Source: a virus
Lineage: Duplodnaviria; Caudoviricetes
Direction: 5' to 3' (one strand)
IMG/VR virus record: IMGVR_UViG_3300047157_000186
Length of the DNA: 64,000 bases
Positions 4,228-62,617 of the stretch are shown one piece after another. The translations under genes and the position numbers were made by a program. The notes under the pieces are model-generated. The model had not been told where the DNA came from and did not search any database. It saw nothing but the letters and a program-made list of their open reading frames with translations. Every line of letters begins with the position of its first letter. The stretch's first letter is position 1.

Positions 4228-4683
4228 ATGAAATACATAAAACTATTCGAAGAGTTTACAGCAAACAAGGTATCTTGTGATAACTGTGGTTGGTCTTGGG
4301 AAATAGAAGACGGTGGACACGATGTGTTTATTTGTCATAAATGTAATCATGATAATACACCTATTTTAGGAGAACAATTTATCTTACAGGAATTAGAAGA
4401 TCAATTCAATATAGAATTAGATTTATATGATAACGGTAAATACTTACAACTTAGTAAAATAAAAATACAAAAAGAGGACCGAAATAAAGGAATCGGTTCT
4501 AAGGTTATGTCAAGAATTACTGACTATGCCGACACACAAAATTTAAAAATATATCTAACACCTTCTAAAGATTTTGGAGCAACTTCTATTTCTAGATTAA
4601 ATAAGTTTTATAAAAACTTTGATTTTGTCAAGAATACAGATAAAAGCCAAACTAAAGATACTATGGTTAGATTACCAAAATAA
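4228..4683 (+). CDS. zinc-ribbon plus GNAT acetyltransferase, putative capsid-internal protein
   Basis: CDNC..CHKC ribbon; acetyl-CoA motif RNKGIGSKVM and LNKFYKNFDF; N-terminus MKYIKLFEEF. Confidence 0.75.
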   Translation: MKYIKLFEEFTANKVSCDNCGWSWEIEDGGHDVFICHKCNHDNTPILGEQFILQELEDQFNIELDLYDNGKYLQLSKIKIQKEDRNKGIGSKVMSRITDYADTQNLKIYLTPSKDFGATSISRLNKFYKNFDFVKNTDKSQTKDTMVRLPK

Positions 4684-4693
4684 TAAAAACAAC

Positions 4694-7654
4694 ATGAGCA
4701 ATTTTAACGATTTCCTAGGAATGCAAGCCGCAAAACTAAACATGACAAGAGAAGAGTATACTGCATACTATTTGTCAGAAGCAAAACCTGGTCCAAAACC
4801 ATATCACAGAGGATTAGATGACGATGAGATTGAAGATAAAAAAGATCAGATAAAAAAACAATCAGACATGGATGACGATGATTCTAGTGCATATAAAGAA
4901 ATGCCAGGTGATAAAGAAGCTAGAGAAAAAGGTGAAGTTAAAACATCTAAGCATGTAAAGAAATATCATGAATTATATGGTGATAAAAAAGATGAGTCAG
5001 TGGATGAAGCAACATTCAGACCAAACTCAGGTACTATGAGTGGAGGTACATATACTTTAGATAATAGAAAATATAAATTAAAAAAAGATATTGAAGGTGT
5101 TCAAATTGGTAATTATACAAATATAGTGTTACCAAAGGGAACTATTATATACAACATTCCGGGCGGTGTGTTTGCAGATCACCCTTCATTAAAAAGATAC
5201 GAGAACGGAAACAACAAATATTTTAACAAACCAACATTTAAGGGAATTTCTATTATAAGAAAAGAGGAAACTATCTTTTCAATAGATAAAAATTCAAAGA
5301 TATTAGAATCAGTAGTTACTGAAGCTAAAGCATATAAGTTAAAAGCTTCTGAATTCGGTGGAGATACACACTCAGCACCGTACAACGTAAAGGGCGAACC
5401 TACATGGAGAGTTCATAGTACTTATGCTATTGATCAAGTATCTGGAGAAAATGATGCAAGTGAAAGAGACGTAGTTTTCTTTGAAGCAATGCCTATTAAT
5501 AATGACATATACATTAAGATTGGTGGAATCAATAACCTTAAAAGAACTAATGGTTCTACATACGGTAATAACTTTGGCACTACTATTGAAGAATGGAAAA
5601 AGGATCCAAAGAGAATTGCAAAAGAAGCTTCCGAGTTTCTTACTGATGCAACGCATCTTAAATGGATAAACAAAAAAGCAAGAAGTCAGGGTCAAACAAT
5701 TAAATGGGCTTTGAAGGACGATTACTCTAGTGTGATTGTAGATCTAGTTAATAAATCATTAGGTCTTACTGAATCTCAAGTTAATGAGTTTTATTTTGAG
5801 AAAGATGAAGAAGAAAGATTACAAAAATTTGTAGATCAACTTTCTTTTGGAGATGAACTAGAATACAGAGATGGTTTTTCTACAGGTCGTGGAAGCTTTC
5901 CAAATACAAGACAACTTAAAAATGAATTAGATTCTAATTTTCAATTATTACTAACTCAAAAATCAGGTAGAAATTGGGATCTTTATGTTGGTAGTGATGA
6001 TTTAGTTTTTCTTATACAGCCAGATTTAGGTGCAAAGAATTATATGCAAGTTTCAATAAGTAGTACTAAAGAACAATGGAACGATGAGTCTAGTGTTTTT
6101 GCTAGATCCAATGGATATTCAGTATATGAATCAGTAGTTAACGAAAGAGCTAAACACACATCAACTGATTTTTCTAAACCAGGTAATGATGGTGATATTT
6201 ACTTTTCAAAAAGAGAAGGTGATGCCGTCGGCGTTAGATTAGGAGATAAATTACAAATGATTTATGTTTTTCAAGAAGAACCTAAATTAGGAAGAATTCA
6301 AAAAACTGATAAACGTTGGGAAAACATGGGTCCAGCTTCTGAAGAACTTTTAATTGATTTAAGAGGTAGAGAAGAAGGTAAAATATTATTTGACTTTGTT
6401 TCAACTCTTGAAGAATCAGTAGTTAATGAAGAAAAGATTAAATATGCTAAAGGAAAAACATATCAATCTTCTGGTCATTGGACTGTACAAGTTGATAGTA
6501 ATTCAAGTATGTGTGATATTAGAGTAAATCATTCAGCTGGTTGGAGATTAGATCCACATGATGATAGAGAAGAAACTTGGGAATTATTAGATAATGGAAG
6601 ACAAAGAGCTACAATATATTTTAAATCTGGTAATATTGATAAGTTTGCTAAACAGATGTTTGATCTTAATGATAGAACAACTTGGGGTAATAAAACAAAA
6701 TTAACTGCTAAAGATTATGCAGATATTATTAGAGTTTGGATCGATATGAAAATGGCTAATGAAGGTAATTATAACTTAGAAGATATTTATGATTTAATAG
6801 CACATCACAGATTTGATAAAGATTATAAAAAACTTTCTTCTAAAGACAGAGAGTGGATAGAGAATGATGCTGAAGAAAGAGGATTCGTAGAATCTTTATC
6901 ACCCAGATTTTTTAATTCTTTATTAGTAAAGTTAAACGAAGATTTAATTACAGAAAGTAAAGTGCCTAATTTTAAATTCGGTATGAAAAAACAATATGAC
7001 GCTGATGATATTAATCAAATGTATGGTTTTTGGGGAACTCTAGATGTTCATATGGACACTTATGAAATTGAAGAAATATGGAACGATGTATGGGGAATAT
7101 TGACAAGGGGTTGGAAGTTCTCAGATGCTGGAGCGCTATATTATCTAAACGCAAAAGCTGGTAGATGGTTAGCAGATAAAGTATGGAACGATATTAATTC
7201 TCAGATTTCTCAACCAGATGCCATTGATATGATTTTATCTGATTATGCTAGACCATCTAAATGGAAGGCATGGTCAAAAGAATATAATACATTTGCTCAG
7301 GAAGAATTGGCAGAATGTGTTATTCTAGAAAAGGCTGAAGGCGATAGAGGTCCAATCAGTGATCCTAAAATTGAAAAAGCACTTAAGACAAAATCAGAAG
7401 AAACTGGTGTGCCAATTGGTATCATTAGAATTATTATGAGAAGAGGAATGGCAGCATGGAAAACTGGTCATAGACCTGGTGCAACTGAACAACAATGGGG
7501 ATATGCTCGAGTAAATGCATTTTTAACAAAAGGTAAAGGAACTTGGGGAGATGCTGATAAAGATGTCGCTAAAGAAGTTAGAGATGAAGGTCATGATGAC
7601 GGGTTAAAGGAACAGAATTACTTTGATCAATCACACAGAAAACAAAATATATAA
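4694..7654 (+). CDS. modular putative internal-head polyprotein with repeated ESVV(T/N)E-type linkers
   Basis: ATG 4694 is preferred over TTG 4619. Linkers at 4994, 5306, 5771, 6128 and 6413; C-terminal RGMAAWKTGHRPGATEQQWGYARVNAF (DUF5824-like, from recollection). Confidence 0.7.
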   Translation: MSNFNDFLGMQAAKLNMTREEYTAYYLSEAKPGPKPYHRGLDDDEIEDKKDQIKKQSDMDDDDSSAYKEMPGDKEAREKGEVKTSKHVKKYHELYGDKKDESVDEATFRPNSGTMSGGTYTLDNRKYKLKKDIEGVQIGNYTNIVLPKGTIIYNIPGGVFADHPSLKRYENGNNKYFNKPTFKGISIIRKEETIFSIDKNSKILESVVTEAKAYKLKASEFGGDTHSAPYNVKGEPTWRVHSTYAIDQVSGENDASERDVVFFEAMPINNDIYIKIGGINNLKRTNGSTYGNNFGTTIEEWKKDPKRIAKEASEFLTDATHLKWINKKARSQGQTIKWALKDDYSSVIVDLVNKSLGLTESQVNEFYFEKDEEERLQKFVDQLSFGDELEYRDGFSTGRGSFPNTRQLKNELDSNFQLLLTQKSGRNWDLYVGSDDLVFLIQPDLGAKNYMQVSISSTKEQWNDESSVFARSNGYSVYESVVNERAKHTSTDFSKPGNDGDIYFSKREGDAVGVRLGDKLQMIYVFQEEPKLGRIQKTDKRWENMGPASEELLIDLRGREEGKILFDFVSTLEESVVNEEKIKYAKGKTYQSSGHWTVQVDSNSSMCDIRVNHSAGWRLDPHDDREETWELLDNGRQRATIYFKSGNIDKFAKQMFDLNDRTTWGNKTKLTAKDYADIIRVWIDMKMANEGNYNLEDIYDLIAHHRFDKDYKKLSSKDREWIENDAEERGFVESLSPRFFNSLLVKLNEDLITESKVPNFKFGMKKQYDADDINQMYGFWGTLDVHMDTYEIEEIWNDVWGILTRGWKFSDAGALYYLNAKAGRWLADKVWNDINSQISQPDAIDMILSDYARPSKWKAWSKEYNTFAQEELAECVILEKAEGDRGPISDPKIEKALKTKSEETGVPIGIIRIIMRRGMAAWKTGHRPGATEQQWGYARVNAFLTKGKGTWGDADKDVAKEVRDEGHDDGLKEQNYFDQSHRKQNI
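4994..6430 (+). repeat. dispersed in-frame direct repeats encoding the ESVV(T/N)E linker, locus 1
   Basis: gaatcagtagttactgaagct 5306-5326, gaatcagtagttaacgaa 6128-6145, gaatcagtagttaatgaa 6413-6430; degenerate copies at 4994 and 5771. Confidence 0.85.
7646..7654 (+). promoter_or_regulatory. putative late promoter motif variant AATATATAA
   Basis: Followed by TACATG exactly as at 3516 and 53398; starts 12 nt before ATG 7658. Confidence 0.5.
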
Positions 7655-11867: not shown

Positions 11868-12788
11868 ATGAAAAAACTACTTGCAATTATCTCGTTAATT
11901 ATGTTATCATCATGCGGAGCCAGTTGGCAATTGTCTACGCTTAACCATGATCCAATATATGAAGACGAAAATTATATAGTGGTTTCAGATGATGTTAAGA
12001 TAGACACATTAAGTGAATTTCAGTTTAGAAATAAATTAAGAACAGATATAGGTTTTAGATTGGACTTTGCACGATATGCTTTGAGTCAACCGAGATCGTT
12101 TGATTGGAATAATAGATTACTAGGAAGGCGATATGATTCTAGATGGAATAACTATTATTGGAGTTGGAATAGAGATCAGATGTGGAATGATTGGGCTTGG
12201 GGTTATACAGGCTGGAATTCTTGGGGCTCTCCTCATAGATGGTCACCATTTGGATATGATAGATGGGGCTATGGAGTCTACTATGGTTGGAATAATCACG
12301 GTTGGGGATATAACAACTGGATGGGCAATGTTCATTATGGAAATGGTTACTATAATAACTGGGGCTGGAACAATGGGTTCTATAGTAGATATAGAGGTAC
12401 TAACGTGCCATACTATAGAAATAGATCAAATACGGTACGTGTTAATGGTCGAAGAGGTTCAATTAGTAATGAAGTAGTTAATAATAGAAGAGTTAGAACT
12501 AATACCAGAGTCAATACTAACACTAATACTAGGACTAATACAAAACCTAGAGTATATCTAAATCAAAACACACCAGTTAATAACAATACAAAACCTAGGG
12601 TTATTAGAGAGAAGCCGAGAGTACCAGTTATTAGAAACAATAATACAAGACCTAGGAATAATACAAGGCCAGTAATTAGAAACAATAACACAAGACCTAC
12701 ATATAACAATAACACAAGACCCACGAATAATTCTAGACCAACTACGACAACTAGAAAAAGTGGATCTAATACTAGAAGAGGTAACTAA
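11868..12788 (+). CDS. predicted lipoprotein with W/G/Y/N-rich and NNNTRP-repeat low-complexity regions
   Basis: Signal peptide II MKKLLAIISLIMLSS-C; aromatic/Gly/Asn-rich middle; basic repeat tail. Confidence 0.7.
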   Translation: MKKLLAIISLIMLSSCGASWQLSTLNHDPIYEDENYIVVSDDVKIDTLSEFQFRNKLRTDIGFRLDFARYALSQPRSFDWNNRLLGRRYDSRWNNYYWSWNRDQMWNDWAWGYTGWNSWGSPHRWSPFGYDRWGYGVYYGWNNHGWGYNNWMGNVHYGNGYYNNWGWNNGFYSRYRGTNVPYYRNRSNTVRVNGRRGSISNEVVNNRRVRTNTRVNTNTNTRTNTKPRVYLNQNTPVNNNTKPRVIREKPRVPVIRNNNTRPRNNTRPVIRNNNTRPTYNNNTRPTNNSRPTTTTRKSGSNTRRGN

Positions 12789-24051: not shown

Positions 24052-25338
24052 ATGAACAACGAAAAAAACAAAAGGATCAGAATTGGGGAAAAGACACCAA
24101 AAGAGACCGTAGTTGAAGAACTAGATGTAAAAATCGAAAACACAGAAATTGAAGAAGATGCTAATCAAGCATTTTATGATGAGAACGGGGAATTCATGTG
24201 GGATGCATATGAGTCTACTTGCCCGTCAAGAACAAGAAAACCAAATCCACACATTAAAACCAAAGACGGCGATAAAGTCTACTCTAGGGAATCTTATGCC
24301 CAAGAAATGTATGACATGCTTACTGCACATGATGCTAGTATTGGACAATTACTGACTGTAATTAATCCTGGTGAAATTCATGAAGGTAAAATTTATGCAA
24401 TTAATTCTGAGTTTATTAGCGTTGATATTGGTTACAGGGAATTGATCTACGTCAAGTATGATAAAGAACCTGCTGAAATTCAATCGCTAAAACCAGGTGA
24501 TGACACCGCTGTACTAATTACACAATTGGGTAAAAACTCACATATTGTTGGTAGTATTAATGGTGGTGTTAAACACAAAGTGTTTATGGATCTTAGAGCT
24601 GCAGTTGAAGAAGGAAACACAGCGTGGGTCGGTACAGTTACAAATATGATTGAAAATGGAGGTTATATGGTAATGGTACAAGGCATAGAATGTTTTATGC
24701 CAGGATCTTTAGCTGGAATTAATAAACTACATGACTTTAGTTCTATTATTGGAACGGAAATGTATGTAGTTCCTGTTAGTTTCTCACCGGATAGAGGTAC
24801 GTTAGTAGTTTCTCATAGAAAATATTTACAAGCTTTAATACCTGGAGAAATTGAAAACTTAAAACAAACACAAGGTGAAACAGTGACTGGAAATGTTACG
24901 GGTACTGCAAAATACGGAGTATTTGTAGAATTTAATAAGTGTTTAACTGGTATGATTCATAATAATGATTTAGATGAAGATACATTAGCCAAGTTTAGAG
25001 CCAGAGAAATTAAACCAGGTGATGAAATTTCATTTATGGTTAAAGATATTATAAGTAATACTAAAATAACATTAACTCAAAAGGCAAATATAGTTGTTAA
25101 TCCATGGGTAGATATTATTTCTAGATATCAAATTCCTTCTGTGGTACAAGCTACTGTTAAAACTAAAAAGGATTACGGATTATTTATCACAATAGAAGAT
25201 GGAGTGACTGGTTTGCTACATGTTAGCGAATTAAGTGAAGAAGTAATGAGCGTATTTAAAGCTGGTGACCCAATCACGGTACAGATTACAAGAATCGATG
25301 TTGATTCGATGAAAGTCTTTTTAAAGATGCCGCAATAA
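24052..25338 (+). CDS. rpsA: phage-encoded ribosomal protein S1 homologue (four S1 domains)
   Basis: Repeated S1 cores (IECFMPGS, TGTAKYGVFVEF..TGMIH, KDYGLFITIEDGVTGLLHVSEL); N-terminal EFMWDAYE resembles the Bacteroidota S1 DFxWDAYE motif. Confidence 0.85.
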   Translation: MNNEKNKRIRIGEKTPKETVVEELDVKIENTEIEEDANQAFYDENGEFMWDAYESTCPSRTRKPNPHIKTKDGDKVYSRESYAQEMYDMLTAHDASIGQLLTVINPGEIHEGKIYAINSEFISVDIGYRELIYVKYDKEPAEIQSLKPGDDTAVLITQLGKNSHIVGSINGGVKHKVFMDLRAAVEEGNTAWVGTVTNMIENGGYMVMVQGIECFMPGSLAGINKLHDFSSIIGTEMYVVPVSFSPDRGTLVVSHRKYLQALIPGEIENLKQTQGETVTGNVTGTAKYGVFVEFNKCLTGMIHNNDLDEDTLAKFRAREIKPGDEISFMVKDIISNTKITLTQKANIVVNPWVDIISRYQIPSVVQATVKTKKDYGLFITIEDGVTGLLHVSELSEEVMSVFKAGDPITVQITRIDVDSMKVFLKMPQ

Positions 25339-48591: not shown

Positions 48592-49956
48592 ATGAGCTAC
48601 GATTATACAAGAACTGTCTCAATTACACCGGTAAGTACATCCTATTCATGGGATGCTACTCCTAATTGGATTACTATAACAAGAGTTTCTGTTAACTCCG
48701 ATGACTGGACAATTACACTTCAAGAAAACACAGGTGATGCACGTAGTGCGACACTTACTGTTAGACATGCTAATTCAACAACGGTTGACACTATAACTGT
48801 GAATCAAGCTGAGGGTGTAGGTGTGCCTGATCCAACTGCAACGCCAGTTCCGACTTCGGTTCCGACTGCAACGCCAGCTCCGACGAACGTACCAAATCCA
48901 ACGCCAGTTCCACCAACTGCAACGCCAGTTCCACCAACTGCAACGCCAGTTCCAACTGTTCAACCAACACCTGGTCCAAACCCAACGTTTACATTTGCAA
49001 CTAATACAACGTCTGGTAATAGATTTATATTTGCACCTAGTAGTCTTAATACTGATGTATCATATACAATCGTAGCAGATGGTAACACTAGTCCAGCTGC
49101 GCCAAGTAATTTTAGTACCAATGGTGTTAGTGGTTCAAATCAAACTGGACCAACTGTAACAAACAATTCGAACGTATTTACTGGAACTTATAGGTTTACA
49201 AAAACTTTTTCACCAATTGCTGATCTGAATGTTAACTGTACAGTAAGTGCACCATATGGCACATCAGATACTTGGTATTGTACGCTTGAAGCAGATTCAG
49301 GTCCTAAAAATACAGCTACGCCAAGTCCAACTAATAGTTCAGGCTCTGGTTCAGGTTCGGGACCAACTGCAACACCAATTCCTAATCCAACTGCAACACC
49401 AGTTCCATCTTCAACGCCATCGTATAGTGGCGGAGGCGGCGGAGGCGGATGTCACGTAGCTGGAGAATTACTTACGTTAGCTAATGGTGAAACTAAATTA
49501 GTAGAAGATGTAGTTGTAGGAGATAACTTATTATCTGTTAATTTTGATGGATTTAGTTTAGATGGAGAGTGGAAATCATGGAAAAGAAGAGAAGAAACTC
49601 TTGGATCTGTGTATACAAACACGACTGTTACTAATGTTACTGTTTTAGAATTCGATAAATATTATGACTTCAATAATGGATTATTAAAAATCACAGAAGA
49701 ACATCCTGTCCTAGTAAAAGATACTGTAGGAGATATTTACTTCAAACAAGTAAGAGATATTGTTAATTCTGATTGGCTCTTAAATGAAGACAATGAATGG
49801 GTAGATATTACATCTATAGAATTGATAGCGGTACCTGAGAGATTTACAACATATTCCTTTAACGTAGAAGAAGCTGATGTTTATTTTGCAAATGGTATAA
49901 TAGTACACAATGTTGAGGATCTTGAAGAGGATCGCGAAAAACAATTTATGCAATAA
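48592..49956 (+). CDS. BACON-domain, Pro/Thr-linker adhesin with C-terminal Hint (intein-like) domain
   Basis: SWDATPNWIT..ITLQENTGDARSATLTV..ITVNQ (BACON); PTATPV repeats; Hint C-HVAG ... TEEH ... YSFNV ... VHN. Confidence 0.8.
   Translation: MSYDYTRTVSITPVSTSYSWDATPNWITITRVSVNSDDWTITLQENTGDARSATLTVRHANSTTVDTITVNQAEGVGVPDPTATPVPTSVPTATPAPTNVPNPTPVPPTATPVPPTATPVPTVQPTPGPNPTFTFATNTTSGNRFIFAPSSLNTDVSYTIVADGNTSPAAPSNFSTNGVSGSNQTGPTVTNNSNVFTGTYRFTKTFSPIADLNVNCTVSAPYGTSDTWYCTLEADSGPKNTATPSPTNSSGSGSGSGPTATPIPNPTATPVPSSTPSYSGGGGGGGCHVAGELLTLANGETKLVEDVVVGDNLLSVNFDGFSLDGEWKSWKRREETLGSVYTNTTVTNVTVLEFDKYYDFNNGLLKITEEHPVLVKDTVGDIYFKQVRDIVNSDWLLNEDNEWVDITSIELIAVPERFTTYSFNVEEADVYFANGIIVHNVEDLEEDREKQFMQ
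49450..49911 (+). other. Hint/BIL autoprocessing domain (154 aa, no homing endonuclease)
   Basis: Cys1 follows a poly-Gly linker; block B KITEEHPVLV; block F/G YSFNVEEADVYFANGIIVHN; the +1 residue is Val. Confidence 0.88.
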
Positions 49957-57482: not shown

Positions 57483-58991
57483 GTGGAGCTTAGTTTAACT
57501 GAAAATAAACAGTTGCTACGTATTGATGAAGCAACTGAATTAGAACTGGAACAACTCAATATTTCTTTAAATAGAAGAATTGATTCATGGCGATTTAATC
57601 CTTTGGTTAAAAAGGGTTTATGGGATGGATATGTTTCATATATAAAAGATGATAAATGGATTCCTTCAGGATTATGGAGAGAAGTCATGCAGATATGTAA
57701 AGAATATAAATTTGAGTTTAAACTCAATGGTATTACTGACATGTTTGATACCAATATTAATCAAGAAAAATTTACAAAATGGGCTTTAGACTTTTTCGAA
57801 AAGTCAGAGATAACTCCAAGAGATTATCAAATAGAGGCAGCATTTAATATACTAAAATTTAGAAGATGCTTAAGTGAGCTTGCAACTTCTGCGGGTAAAA
57901 CACTGATATCATTCTTAACAGTATCATATTTACTAGAACAACAAAAAGCAAAAAAGATTTTATTTATTGTACCCAATGTATCATTAGTTGTACAAGCGAG
58001 TGAAGATTTTCTAGACTATAATTATAGAAATGCAATAGATATTAAGGTACAGCAAATATACAGTGGTCAAAAATTAAGGCCAGGTAGGAATGTTATTATT
58101 GGAACATATCAATCACTTGTTAAAAAAGATAAAGCATATTTTGCAGAATTTGATGCAGTAATTGTTGATGAAACACACAAAGCAAAATCAGCCTCTATTA
58201 AAACTATTTTACAAAAGTGTATTAATGCAGATTATAAATATGGTTTATCTGGAACTATTCCAAAAGAAGGCACATTAGATAGATTAACACTAATGGCATA
58301 TACTGGTCCATTAATTACAGAAATAAGTGCACATTATTTACAAAACGAAGGGCATATAGCAGGTTGTAAAGTAAAGGTAATTAAAATGGACTATGCACCT
58401 CAATCTACAAAAGACGCATTTAGAGAAATGTCCCAGAATAGATATGAAAGTAAAGACGTTTTTAAATTTGAGCAAAACTATGTGATCAATTCACCTGGAA
58501 GACTTAATTTTATAACAAGTATTATCTCCAGGGTTAAGGGTAATAGTTTAGTTCTTTTTCATAGAATTGAACATGGTAAAAAAATATATGAAAAACTCAG
58601 ACAAGAGAGTGATAAATCTGTTTATTATGTTGATGGTGGAATTGATAAAGATATTAGGGAAGAACACAAAAAGAAAATGGAAGCTGGAAACCAAGTCGTC
58701 ATTGTCGCTTCATATGGTACATTCTCAACTGGTATATCCATCAAGAAAATCCACAACATATTCTTCACAGAATCATTTAAATCGGAAGTAATTATTAGAC
58801 AATCTATCGGTAGAGGTTTAAGGCAACATAGCTCTAAAGACTCGGTCAATATTATAGATTTTGTAGATGATTTAAGTTCTCCTGATTGGGACAACTATCT
58901 AATAAGACACTCCAAAGAAAGACAAAGGATCTACAAGGAACAGAAGTTTAAGTATGATATAAAAAATGTAGATTTTGAAGGAGATATATAA
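57483..58991 (+). CDS. uvsW: UvsW-like DNA helicase
   Basis: PRDYQ, LATSAGKTLI, IVPNVSLV, VDETH, GLSGT, STGISIK and QSIGRGLR motifs. Confidence 0.92.
   Translation: MELSLTENKQLLRIDEATELELEQLNISLNRRIDSWRFNPLVKKGLWDGYVSYIKDDKWIPSGLWREVMQICKEYKFEFKLNGITDMFDTNINQEKFTKWALDFFEKSEITPRDYQIEAAFNILKFRRCLSELATSAGKTLISFLTVSYLLEQQKAKKILFIVPNVSLVVQASEDFLDYNYRNAIDIKVQQIYSGQKLRPGRNVIIGTYQSLVKKDKAYFAEFDAVIVDETHKAKSASIKTILQKCINADYKYGLSGTIPKEGTLDRLTLMAYTGPLITEISAHYLQNEGHIAGCKVKVIKMDYAPQSTKDAFREMSQNRYESKDVFKFEQNYVINSPGRLNFITSIISRVKGNSLVLFHRIEHGKKIYEKLRQESDKSVYYVDGGIDKDIREEHKKKMEAGNQVVIVASYGTFSTGISIKKIHNIFFTESFKSEVIIRQSIGRGLRQHSSKDSVNIIDFVDDLSSPDWDNYLIRHSKERQRIYKEQKFKYDIKNVDFEGDI
58983..58991 (+). promoter_or_regulatory. 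putative late promoter motif GATATATAA
   Basis: Overlaps the uvsW stop; upstream of ATG 59025. Confidence 0.55.
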
Positions 58992-59024: not shown

Positions 59025-61322
59025 ATGTATAAATTAAAATCTTTTGATCAGTTTTCTACTGAATCACAAATCAATAGATCTAGACAAGTAGAAGAAGAAA
59101 ACTCTACTAAAAGAAGTACTGAAGCAGAAACATATAAAAATTTACTTGGTGAATTTAAAGTTACTTCTATCAAAGAATTAACTGAAGAGCAAAGAATCGA
59201 ATTTTTTACTAAGTTAAGAGGCGCTGAGATTAACGAAGCAACTGTTTTAATTGAAGAAGGAACTAGAGGACAAATTGGTAAAATCGATAAAAAAGGAAAT
59301 ATCACTTCTGTATATATGCATTATGATTCATATCCTGAAAACATATTACCTATTATAACTTCAACTTTTAAAGATGGTAAAAATGTAGATTTTATTCTTA
59401 AGAATGGAGACAGTTCGGGTTTAGATAAAGATGTTAAGAAGATTAATTTCTACGGGAACTTTACAGCGTCTAAGGGTAAAATTGCTAATATATCTAAATA
59501 TCTAAGGGATGTTGCTGATGGCGGCGGCGCTGAATTCGTATACTTATGGGATGAAGCCAACAAAGAATGGTTAATGGCAGACATTTACGGTAAAGGATAT
59601 GATGATGTTTACCCAGCGTTTGAATCTTTAACTACTTCAGTAAATGAAGCTATTTCAGTTCAATATAAAAGAGACGCAAAAAAAGTTTTAACAGTTTATA
59701 AAAATTTATTTACTAAGAAACTAACAGATTTTGGTGCAATGGACAAAGTAGGTACATTAGGTTGTATTAAGTATCTTTTTGAAGAAGCGATGACAGATGC
59801 TAATTTCCACAGAGAGAAAGTTATATCTAAGAATATTAAAGGTAGAATAGGTTCATTTGAATTAAAAGTAGCAGGTTTAGGTAATCACTTTTTAACAATA
59901 GGTGCTACTACTACAAAAAGAATTTTAGATAAACATTATAGTGACCTTGCAAATGCAGCTGGTTGGTCAGGAATCGGAATTGTTGAAGGTACTGCTCTTT
60001 ATTTAGAGAGTATTAAAGAAGAAGCTTCAGGTCAAGCTTTATTAAATGCGTTTAACATGTTTGAGTCATTTGCGTATGACGAAGGAGATGCTATCAATGA
60101 GAAATCATATGATAAAAAGTCTTTAATGAAAGCTATGAAAGCAGATGATGGCATGATTCAATTAGGAAATGGACAAGAGTATGTTATTTATGCATATGGT
60201 AATGGCAACGATAACAATGATGATATGTGGGGAGATAAAACAATCTTTGGATTAGATCAAGACGGAGAAGAACATGAGATTAAATATTCTGACATTGTAA
60301 GTTATAATGAAGCTACTGTAGTAATGGATGCAATGGATCCTAAATCAAAGATACTTAAAAAACTTTTAAAGAAACATAACGTTAAAATGAAAGTTTTAGA
60401 TCCTAGTGGACCAAGTGGTTGGCCAGAGGTTGAAATGACAGGTTCAAGAGAAGATCTGCAAGCAGTTTTAGCATCTGAAGATGGTTGGGACGACGCTGGT
60501 CTAGAAGAATATATTGAAGAATCAGTAGTTACTGAATCACACCCAAAATGTTCAAATAAAAAAGGACATGCATACAAAGAAATTGACAAAGACGGAACTG
60601 TAGAATGTGAATATTGTGGTTTAAGAAATTCATTAAGCGAATCAGGGGTTACTGAAGCTAAATTTGTTAAAGAGTTTGACGAGGCTGTTTTAAAAGCAAC
60701 TACACAAGAAGAGGTTCTTGAAATTTATCCAAACGCAGAATTCTTTATTGGCAAATCAGATCATTTCTTTGGAGAGTTTGATGAAAATTTATTCTTTAAA
60801 GCATATTATACCAAAGGACAAAAAGAATTTGAAATCAAGTCAATTTATTCTGAAAAAAACAGTAACTATGTTCACTTATATAATGAATCAGTAGTTACTG
60901 AAGCTAAAGGCTTTAAAAACACAACAGATTTCGAAAAATTCTTAATAGAAATTGATGGAATGGGAGAAGCTCAAATTAAAAAGATAATGGGTAAAGATTA
61001 TATCGATACTCCTGGTTATTATCAAGATGAAAAAGATGATTATGATGATGTGGAAGATTTTATGAGATCTAATATGGGCACTTCAGAATTTGAAAAACTT
61101 GAATCATGGTGGGAAAGCAACGTTGCAGAATCAGTAGTTACTGAAGCTGAAGTTAATTCAGATGAAGAATTTGAAGAATATGCGGTAACTGTTTTACAAA
61201 AAGCATTTGGAGAAGATTTTGACGAAGCTAAATCTAAAAAAGTTATAGACGGTATTTTATCTAAAGCAGATGGAGATTATGGTACTGCAGTTGGTATGCT
61301 AACTAGCTCGTTAGGACAATAA
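59025..61322 (+). CDS. second modular putative internal-head polyprotein with ESVVTE linkers
   Basis: Leader MYKLKSFDQFSTE; linkers at 60519, 60639, 60885 and 61128; modules include a VYMHYDSYP domain and a C/H zinc finger. Confidence 0.7.
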   Translation: MYKLKSFDQFSTESQINRSRQVEEENSTKRSTEAETYKNLLGEFKVTSIKELTEEQRIEFFTKLRGAEINEATVLIEEGTRGQIGKIDKKGNITSVYMHYDSYPENILPIITSTFKDGKNVDFILKNGDSSGLDKDVKKINFYGNFTASKGKIANISKYLRDVADGGGAEFVYLWDEANKEWLMADIYGKGYDDVYPAFESLTTSVNEAISVQYKRDAKKVLTVYKNLFTKKLTDFGAMDKVGTLGCIKYLFEEAMTDANFHREKVISKNIKGRIGSFELKVAGLGNHFLTIGATTTKRILDKHYSDLANAAGWSGIGIVEGTALYLESIKEEASGQALLNAFNMFESFAYDEGDAINEKSYDKKSLMKAMKADDGMIQLGNGQEYVIYAYGNGNDNNDDMWGDKTIFGLDQDGEEHEIKYSDIVSYNEATVVMDAMDPKSKILKKLLKKHNVKMKVLDPSGPSGWPEVEMTGSREDLQAVLASEDGWDDAGLEEYIEESVVTESHPKCSNKKGHAYKEIDKDGTVECEYCGLRNSLSESGVTEAKFVKEFDEAVLKATTQEEVLEIYPNAEFFIGKSDHFFGEFDENLFFKAYYTKGQKEFEIKSIYSEKNSNYVHLYNESVVTEAKGFKNTTDFEKFLIEIDGMGEAQIKKIMGKDYIDTPGYYQDEKDDYDDVEDFMRSNMGTSEFEKLESWWESNVAESVVTEAEVNSDEEFEEYAVTVLQKAFGEDFDEAKSKKVIDGILSKADGDYGTAVGMLTSSLGQ
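60519..61148 (+). repeat. dispersed in-frame direct repeats encoding the ESVVTE(A) linker, locus 2
   Basis: gaatcagtagttactgaa at 60519; gaatcaggggttactgaagct at 60639; gaatcagtagttactgaagct at 60885 and 61128 (identical to 5306). Confidence 0.9.
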
Positions 61323-61342: not shown

Positions 61343-62617
61343 ATGAAGATCTTTACTAATTTCAATGAATTTATAACTGAGAGTGTACGTACTAGTACAA
61401 CTGAGTCCCTTATTTTAGAAGGTGGAGCAGCGGGCCATATGTCACATCCATTTGATGAAAAAGATTTAACATTCGGTGACTTTAAAAAAATTGTTGAAGC
61501 TGGTCTTCAAGGAGAATTAAACTTTGAAGAGGTTGCAACAGAAAAAACAGACGGCCAAAATTTATTTGCCACCGTAAGAAACGGAGTTACTCTATTTTCT
61601 AGAAATAAAGGCCAATTAATTAGCCCAGTCGATTTAGCCGGTATTATAAAAATGTTTGAACAGCATGAAGTTCCCTTAGTAAGAGAAACATACGTGTTTG
61701 CTGCTAAAGACCTAAATGAAGCTCTTCCAAAGATGAAGGATCAGTCTATATTTAATGAAGGTAAGAACTTTATTAATATGGAATTAATTTACTCTAAGAA
61801 TCCTAATGTTATTTATTATGAAAGAGATGTTTTACAATTCCATGATATTAAGGAAACTGATGGAAATGGAAATATTATTGGAGAGCAAAAAATAGCAGGA
61901 GAGCTGGTTTCCGCATTAAAAGAAGTTGATGCTGATGTTCAAAAAACATTTACAATAATTCCCCCTCAAATATTAAAATTAGGAAAAGATATTGATTTCG
62001 AAAAAAATCAATCTAAATTCATCAAAAAGATTGAAGCACTAAGAGATCGTTATGGTTTATTAGATACTGATTCAGTTTCAAGATATCACGAAATGTGGTG
62101 GAGAGAAACTATAGATAGAAACTTTCCAGATACAGAACAAGATTATAAAGAAGGTTTATTATTAAGATGGGCTTATGGTGATAAGAAGACTTTAAACATG
62201 AGATCTTTAGACAAATCGTTAGGTAAAGATAAAGCATCTCTTATTAAGAAATTTGACAAAGAAGATGTTAAAAAGAAATATAAAGAAAACATTAGACCGT
62301 TTGAAGATTTATTCTTAGAACTAGGATCTATAATTCTTAAAAATGCTTCTAATTTTGTAGCAGCAAATCCAGACAAGGAAATGCAAAGATTACATAATCA
62401 AATAAGAACAGAAGCTGAAGCTATTAAAAAAACCGGAGGTGAAGCTCAAATTGCAAGAGTAGAAGCTGAACTTGCCAGATTAGATAGAATTGGAGGAATA
62501 GAATCTATTATACCAACTGAAGGAATAGTTTTTGTGTACAAAGGAAAAACAATGAAATTAACAGGTACGTTTGCAGCCATTAATCAATTAATGGGTATCA
62601 TAAAATACGGAAGATAA
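61343..62617 (+). CDS. ligase-fold (covalent nucleotidyltransferase) protein with capsid-targeting-like leader (DUF6267-like, from recollection)
   Basis: Motif I EKTDGQN, III NMELIY, IIIa LQFHD, IV EGIVF, V MKL; leader MKIFTNFNEFITE..SLILE. Confidence 0.65.
   Translation: MKIFTNFNEFITESVRTSTTESLILEGGAAGHMSHPFDEKDLTFGDFKKIVEAGLQGELNFEEVATEKTDGQNLFATVRNGVTLFSRNKGQLISPVDLAGIIKMFEQHEVPLVRETYVFAAKDLNEALPKMKDQSIFNEGKNFINMELIYSKNPNVIYYERDVLQFHDIKETDGNGNIIGEQKIAGELVSALKEVDADVQKTFTIIPPQILKLGKDIDFEKNQSKFIKKIEALRDRYGLLDTDSVSRYHEMWWRETIDRNFPDTEQDYKEGLLLRWAYGDKKTLNMRSLDKSLGKDKASLIKKFDKEDVKKKYKENIRPFEDLFLELGSIILKNASNFVAANPDKEMQRLHNQIRTEAEAIKKTGGEAQIARVEAELARLDRIGGIESIIPTEGIVFVYKGKTMKLTGTFAAINQLMGIIKYGR

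Follow-up and report, generated by a model that had tools for sequence, protein, structure and literature searches.

A gene of linker-joined modules beside uvsW in a Caudoviricetes genome, and its possible role as a precursor of head cargo

A leader and nine modules in one reading frame

We analysed a stretch of 64,000 nucleotides (nt), hereafter the window, from a virus of the Caudoviricetes (Duplodnaviria; IMG/VR record IMGVR_UViG_3300047157_000186), a T4-like marine phage that is abundant and uncultured. Our subject is a gene towards its right end (59025..61322), here called array 2, which encodes a single chain of 765 amino acids (aa; 86 kDa, isoelectric point (pI) 4.7) starting with MYKLKSFDQFSTE. 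A first-pass annotation, made from the sequence alone, had read this gene as a polyprotein of cassettes next to uvsW and had noted the same architecture about 55 kb away. The gene does lie beside a UvsW-type helicase gene, and the distant counterpart, array 1 (4619..7654), is a sister polyprotein gene that carries the same linker DNA, with copies at 5306, 6128 and 6413. Both arrays, and the two genes that flank array 2, are on the plus strand.

The chain opens with a leader of 13 residues (59025..59063; MYKLKSFDQFSTE/S, the slash marking a putative cut), which has a hydrophobic-x-Glu end (FSTE/S) and resembles the capsid targeting sequence (CTS) of phage T4. Nine modules follow. M0 (aa 14-78; 59064..59258) is a charged N-terminal module that ends in INE/A and LIEE/G. 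M1 (aa 79-208; 59259..59648) is an alpha/beta domain like phrog_1987, with a conserved end, PAFE/S at aa 200, and then the degenerate linker SLTTSVNE/A, and M2 (aa 209-359; 59649..60101) is mainly helical, basic (pI 9.3) and ends in MFE/S...AINE/K. The middle of the chain begins with M3 (aa 360-429, 70 aa; 60102..60311), ending in SYNE/A, and M4 (aa 430-504; 60312..60536), which is like phrog_5922 and ends in YIEE/SVVTE/S. It continues with the zinc-finger-like M5 (aa 505-544, 40 aa; 60537..60656), which ends in LSE/SGVTE/A, M6 (aa 545-626, 82 aa; 60657..60902), which ends in YNE/SVVTE/A, and M7 (aa 627-707, 81 aa; 60903..61145), which has identical 21-nt direct repeats on both sides and is absent from three related sequences (G001, L005 and L122). 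The last module, M8 (aa 708-765, 58 aa; 61146..61319), is a conserved C-terminal cap. Eight of the nine modules are acidic, M2 being the basic one, and the whole chain has a net charge of -50.

The boundaries listed in the first-pass annotation are all where it had placed them: LIEE, SVNE, AINE and SYNE end at aa 78, 208, 359 and 429, ESVVTE is encoded from nt 60519, 60885 and 61128, and ESGVTE from 60639. The sizes that it gave for the last modules (40, 82 and 81 aa) are exact, and the final one has 58 aa for about 57 claimed. Its compact C/H zinc finger in M5 is less secure, the match to zf-CHCC being weak (E 8.7e-5, 22.9 bits for a cut-off of 27 bits).

The helicase gene on the left (57483..58991) ends 33 nt before array 2. 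Its product of 502 aa contains PF21241 UvsW_N, ResIII and Helicase_C, matches phrog_16 at 9e-82, and is 72-100% identical in relatives. On the right, a gene at 61343..62617 encodes a protein of 424 aa, 71-100% identical in relatives, which starts with a leader of its own (MKIFTNFNEFITE/S).

A standardised joint and the exchange of whole modules

The last modules of array 2 are separated by four copies of an 18-nt linker, GAATCAGTAGTTACTGAA, which encodes ESVVTE. Three of them are exact (60519..60536, 60885..60902 and 61128..61145), and the one that encodes ESGVTE (60639..60656) has 2 mismatches. When up to 3 mismatches are allowed, the window has 7 copies, all within the two arrays. As 0.13 were expected and no more than 1 was seen in any of 100 shuffles, this recurrence is not due to chance. 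The codons of the linker are also more uniform than its amino acids demand. Among 63 linkers from 31 distinct orthologues, which are related by descent and are therefore not independent events, TCA accounts for 87% of the Ser codons (37% in the background), GTA for 94% of the first Val codons (36%) and ACT for 100% of the Thr codons (55%). IMG/VR contains 87 copies of an exact 20-mer, the linker followed by GC; every one is in frame within a long open frame (median 641 aa), and together they have 49 different upstream and 47 different downstream contexts. As DNA, the linker is a standardised joint between modules.

The content between these joints changes from one relative to the next. An exhaustive phmmer search gave 938 cluster representatives at E <= 1e-3, including 187 at E <= 1e-30, and module order was analysed in the best 150. 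Among these proteins the nine modules vary widely in order and position and show 36 different direct adjacencies, and M1 and M2 are found in either order. M0 and M8 form conserved bookends: the 52 relatives with M0 all carry it at the N-terminus, and M8, present in 99 of the 150, stands at the very C-terminus in 73 of these 99. The two may have a role of their own, for example in core binding or retention, distinct from that of the variable cargo between them. An aromatic-x-x-aromatic N-terminus was found in 101 of the 150.

We then compared 38 IMG/VR loci. The order of uvsW, polyprotein gene and 424-aa gene is kept in about thirty of them, and the size of the polyprotein ranges from 496 to 902 aa. 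Most orthologues retain M0-M1-M2 and M8 and vary in the middle, each cassette being flanked by ES[VL][VI][TN]E. This middle consists of M3-M4-M5-M6-M7 in the window, of the same modules without M7 in G001 and L005, of M4, two tandem copies of another cassette and M5 in L009 (a cassette duplication), of M7 alone in L020, and of unknown cassettes in L021 and L027. Another locus (L029) has cassettes inserted between M1 and M2. The comparison of module order that the first-pass annotation had proposed thus gave a clear result: whole modules differ between relatives, and the differences are bounded by linkers.

Two breakpoints could be placed to the base or nearly so. The nearest record, G001, is 99% identical, and its protein of 684 aa lacks exactly the 81-aa M7; the junction falls within the 21-nt repeat that flanks M7 in the window. 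The other is in an ENA contig (L122). From the first base of the first linker copy (nt 60519) onward, its DNA is 99% identical to the window, through M5, M6, M8 and the downstream genes. The contig has an unrelated N-terminal part of 418 aa and no uvsW upstream. This part meets M5-M6-M8 at an ESIVTE linker (L122:2775-4574), as in a recombinant or rearranged relative, and the upstream genes resemble positions 12256-12773 of the window and not uvsW, which indicates a different gene order in that phage.

Single modules may also have moved between more distant genomes. M7 is 92% identical in L020, where M0, M1 and M2 are 60-76% identical, and M5 is 95-97% identical in L014 and L016, where the backbone is at 55-86%. 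This discordance points to cassette transfer between diverged phages. Most relatives of array 2 have nothing in common with array 1. One of 806 aa (P0052) carries at residues 555-654 a module of array 1 (P0002 aa 138-235) at 46% identity, alongside M0, M2 and M8, and both arrays thus draw on a shared cassette pool.

Folding of the protein as one unit would, according to the first-pass annotation, have spoken against its reading; M1 and M2 were found to model as separate compact domains. Built from 46-sequence alignments, the models reach a predicted local distance difference test (pLDDT) of 90.6 and a predicted template modelling score (pTM) of 0.86 for M1, and 91.3 and 0.85 for M2, with linker tails below a pLDDT of 50 in both. 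Foldseek searches of the two models against the PDB returned nothing at E <= 0.001, and the ESM Atlas gave only sub-threshold clusters of viral hypothetical proteins for M1 and nothing for M2. M1 does resemble AlphaFold clusters of uncharacterised proteins of 112-250 aa, in which the fold starts from residue 2 (template modelling score 0.73-0.75, E down to 3e-7).

These clusters agree with the first-pass annotation, which had likened M1 to a family of stand-alone small phage genes. M1 (GTRGQIG...VYMHYDSYP, aa 79-208) matches phrog_1987, a stand-alone family of 128 positions, at E 2.6e-12, and it has stand-alone relatives with CTS-like leaders of their own, P0118 (157 aa, starting MKHIKLYEEFLNE...) and P0159 (140 aa, 29 member sequences, starting MTNIKNFNDFINE...). 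M4 matches phrog_5922, which has 85 positions, and M7 has one candidate stand-alone form (P0169), with a CTS-like leader. A search of each segment for free-standing homologues, also proposed at the outset, was therefore successful for M1, M4 and perhaps M7; it found no stand-alone relative for M2 alone, M3, M5, M6 or M8. No Pfam family scored above its cut-off in the whole polyprotein or in any module.

The linker-bounded differences, the 36 adjacencies and the folding of M1 and M2 all argue that the modules are independent, exchangeable cassettes, as the first-pass annotation had it. Its further claim, that free-standing genes had been captured in frame, is only partly supported, because most modules lack a stand-alone relative and because the direction of transfer could have been either one, release of modules from arrays being no less possible than capture of free genes.

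Junctions as putative sites of a head protease

The linkers are constrained as protein too. The motif E[ST]x[VILA]xE occurs 452 times in 182 distinct relatives, for 36 +/- 6 in shuffled sequences, at a median spacing of 82 residues. In 363 aligned linkers, read as cleavage sites, P1 is Glu and P3 is Val or Ile, and 316 of the linkers have Ala, Gly or Ser at P1'. Two positions ahead of the first Glu, 88% of them have a hydrophobic residue (38% in the background), and the neighbouring positions vary. Because of this hydrophobic position, the junction can be read as two tandem sites, hydrophobic-x-Glu / Ser-x-Val-(Thr or Asn)-Glu / Ala, Gly or Ser, as at the ends of M4, M5 and M6 given above and in VAE/SVVTE/A. 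The junctions of the N-terminal half, which are without the DNA repeat, retain hydrophobic-x-Glu (FSTE/S, INE/A, AFE/S...VNE/A, MFE/S...INE/K and YNE/A), and the Glu of PAFE is invariant in 46 homologues of M1.

Such sites have a precedent. T4 gp21 and its homologues in giant phages cleave after Glu in short motifs, and T4 Alt is cut at ITE-6 and LTE-619 (PMC5694885). In T4 the first 10 residues of IPIII are enough to load IPIII and foreign proteins into heads, and Asp in place of Glu prevents the CTS from being processed (PMC9026906); the CTS string is MKTYQEFIAE (PMC8442874). The leaders of array 2 and of its 424-aa neighbour share an aromatic-x-x-aromatic ... x-T-E pattern, which is a resemblance only; the leader of array 2 has 13 residues rather than 10.

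A protease of the right family is encoded by relatives. A 91-kb relative (G003) with an orthologue of the polyprotein (L033) has a match to Peptidase_S77 (PF03420) of 46.6 bits, above the Pfam cut-off, and a single contig holds both an orthologue (L040) and the protease (L051). The protease of the relatives matches phrog_207 at 3e-35, and genes for portal and major head protein are likewise present on contigs of relatives with an orthologue. In one locus (L045) the order is portal (phrog_213), a 720-aa fusion of protease (phrog_207) and acidic scaffold-like region, major head protein (phrog_138) and a protein of 515 aa. In this locus and another (L045:8001-10163, L041:1468-3168), the region fused to the head protease is long, repetitive and extremely acidic (EETE or VEETEE repeats) and probably acts as a scaffold; a VNE/S motif that closely follows the protease domain may be an autocleavage site. 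The 515-aa protein (L045:11871-13418), which directly follows the major head protein, is rich in Lys and Ala and starts with a leader-like MDKFEKWLEVINE, ending in INE. The major head protein was identified via phrog_138; a search with PF07068 (Gp23) in five related records gave no match and is uninformative, since its controls were likewise silent. In 55 genes for the major head protein, the product starts with MA(N/Q)LINE[SA] and has PIIE[SA] at residues 16-20, motifs that fit the same specificity and do not prove it.

We consider it probable, on the logic of the motifs, the protease of the relatives and the T4 precedent for cleavage, leader targeting and delivery, that the gene encodes a precursor polyprotein of head cargo, which is cut by the head protease and whose modules are delivered with the DNA. 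The CTS-like leader would bring the whole chain into the core of the assembling prohead. There, every junction would be cleaved behind Glu by a T4-type (S77) head maturation protease; in its canonical form the junction is a tandem double site as given above. The products, about nine small proteins of 4-15 kDa that fold independently and are mostly acidic, would be delivered along with the DNA. Since the junction is also nearly constant as a nucleotide sequence, it may in addition provide related phages with an in-frame microhomology for inserting, deleting, duplicating and swapping entire modules. What the results above support directly is the cassette architecture, the position of breakpoints at linkers, the standardised DNA joint, the independent folding of two modules and the protease in relatives.

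Capsid targeting, cleavage, delivery and the roles of the modules are what we infer from motifs and precedent. Several points weigh against this proposal. The S77 protease was seen in contigs of relatives only, and the polyprotein gene lies beside replication genes, outside the head module. Upstream of it there is no exact copy of the T4 late promoter box TATAAATA, which is not enriched in the window either. Eight of the nine modules are acidic and the internal proteins of T4 are basic. Finally, recombination or gene conversion could by itself keep the linker DNA strictly conserved, with no cleavage.

This last point is the core of the main rival explanation, an uncleaved mosaic protein of the "polyvalent" type, packaged or not, in which the linker is a flexible spacer and its DNA is conserved only as a shuffling joint. 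Conservation at synonymous sites, exact 20-mers common to about 50 module contexts and breakpoints at the linker are what one would expect of it, and single-chain polyvalent phage proteins with many effector domains are documented (PMC5512222). Yet constraints on the amino acids go beyond the conserved DNA, namely the hydrophobic position ahead of the first Glu (88% of linkers) and the small residue at P1'. Moreover, the degenerate junctions keep hydrophobic-x-Glu where the DNA repeat is missing, the leader ends in the same motif, and our Pfam search of the protein and its modules found no hallmark domain of polyvalent proteins. We thus regard an uncleaved chain as unlikely.

Cleavage could also serve other ends. 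The protein might be a component of the head core or scaffold, like T4 gp22, gp67 and gp68, with most fragments expelled and none of the modules acting as a delivered effector. The acidic composition, the many putative Glu sites and the conserved bookends would suit such a role, and gp21 does cut T4 core proteins into short fragments (PMC5694885). A scaffold is nevertheless hard to reconcile with modules that are compact folded domains without coiled coils, and with a content that differs strongly between near-identical phages, unlike what is expected of an essential scaffold; relatives also have a separate fusion of protease and scaffold. We find this reading improbable. Less probable still is a cytoplasmic polyprotein, cut by another protease of the host or phage and never entering the capsid, whose leader has some other role. 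The location beside uvsW and the failure to find a late promoter box would be natural for it. Against it, no other protease was found adjoining the array, the leader and junction motifs match the known specificity of T4-type head proteases, and the stand-alone relatives of M1, like the candidate for M7, bear CTS-like leaders of their own.

Surroundings, known systems and meaning

The 424-aa neighbour may be a second packaged enzyme. Searches of Pfam, PHROGs and PDB sequences gave it no significant match; by eye only, a stretch EKTDGQN looks like the KxDG motif of nucleotidyl transferases and ligases. It is followed, from 62617 onward, by a cytidylyltransferase-like gene. We also considered TAATAAAATAA as a shared upstream signal of the polyprotein gene and the next one, and rejected it, as it is not enriched in the window. 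Elsewhere in the window, a protein of 454 aa (48592-49956) carries a BACON domain in its N-terminal part (E 3.5e-6), and its C-terminus gives a weak intein-splicing-like match. As BACON domains are a typical feature of Bacteroidota, this one hints at a possible host from that phylum. The structural region encodes a 428-aa protein (24052-25338) with a C-terminal S1 RNA-binding domain (E 1e-22), which is unusual among tail and baseplate genes.

The stretch is nearly complete in 20 public runs from 18 studies, which are seawater, marine and viral metagenomes. Six of these runs are RNA libraries, in which contigs span the open reading frame, this being no proof of transcription. In four public runs, of which three are RNA libraries, the contigs that span the frame show no joint that skips a cassette, a result that cannot prove transcription either. 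Among 50,697 records of cultured phages, tblastn with the whole protein found no match, so no cultured relative is available.

The closest parallels are the T4 internal proteins. As in IPI, IPII, IPIII and Alt, the short putative leader at the N-terminus of array 2 has two aromatic positions and a hydrophobic-x-Glu end, the presumed cargo behind it is unrelated and fast-evolving, and a T4-type S77 protease is present, here in relatives. T4 uses one leader per cargo gene, whereas array 2 has one leader before about nine modules joined by a standard double-site linker. The T4 internal proteins are small and basic, and the modules of array 2 mostly acidic. Unlike in T4, the linker is conserved as DNA and is a recombination breakpoint, and the bookends M0 and M8 are conserved. 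In the giant phages phiKZ, 201phi2-1 and SPN3US, head proteins are also cleaved behind the Glu of short motifs (S/A/G-x-E or A-x-E), in some cases more than once per protein, and many packaged proteins are ejected into the host (PMC5694885). Their cuts remove propeptides of single proteins, and arrays of swappable cassettes with a fixed linker are not described there.

Polyvalent proteins (Iyer, Burroughs, Anand, de Souza and Aravind 2017, PMC5512222) likewise combine many unrelated domains per polypeptide in mosaic architectures, and delivery with the invading DNA is their proposed role. They have two to fifteen distinct domains, a range that includes the nine modules of array 2, two of which were modelled as separate domains. 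However, polyvalent proteins have recognisable enzymatic domains and associations with MuF or zincin-type peptidases, none of which was found in array 2; they lack a standard linker between domains, and cutting by a head protease between every domain is not proposed for them. A parallel at the DNA level is given by PeSLs (2010, PMC2839356), short conserved elements at module boundaries in hyperplastic regions, which are substrates for insertion, deletion and replacement between close relatives. The linker of array 2 is such an element: it is short and conserved, and where close relatives differ by an indel or a replacement, the breakpoints lie at it. PeSLs are intergenic, consist of an early promoter and a stem-loop terminator, and shuffle whole genes, whereas the linker is an in-frame coding element of 18-21 nt that shuffles protein modules within an open reading frame. 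In the open-access literature on polyproteins linked to a CTS or a prohead protease we found only the processing in T4 and giant phages, the survey of polyvalent proteins and the PeSL paper, and no linker-joined cassette arrays.

A broader generalisation, which we put forward tentatively, is that both arrays represent a general "protein-level integron" of marine and freshwater T4-like phages. The leader and M0 would be its address, M8 its cap, and the space between them a cargo slot recombined at linkers, each linker being a codon-conserved recombination site as well as a tandem protease site. One signal would then load a set of small proteins, probably with anti-defence roles, that could change rapidly.

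If cutting of the junctions does take place in the prohead, the "one tag, one cargo" arrangement of T4 would have become a polyprotein system in this lineage: one tag would load many small proteins, and one short sequence would serve both proteolysis and recombination. Such a system would explain how phages with 99% identity elsewhere can come to differ in their repertoire of injected proteins. A design rule for packing several proteins into T4-type capsids (leader, module, ESVVTE, module) would follow as well. Hundreds of small, folded and unannotated modules would then be candidate factors for host take-over in the first minute of infection or for countering host defences.

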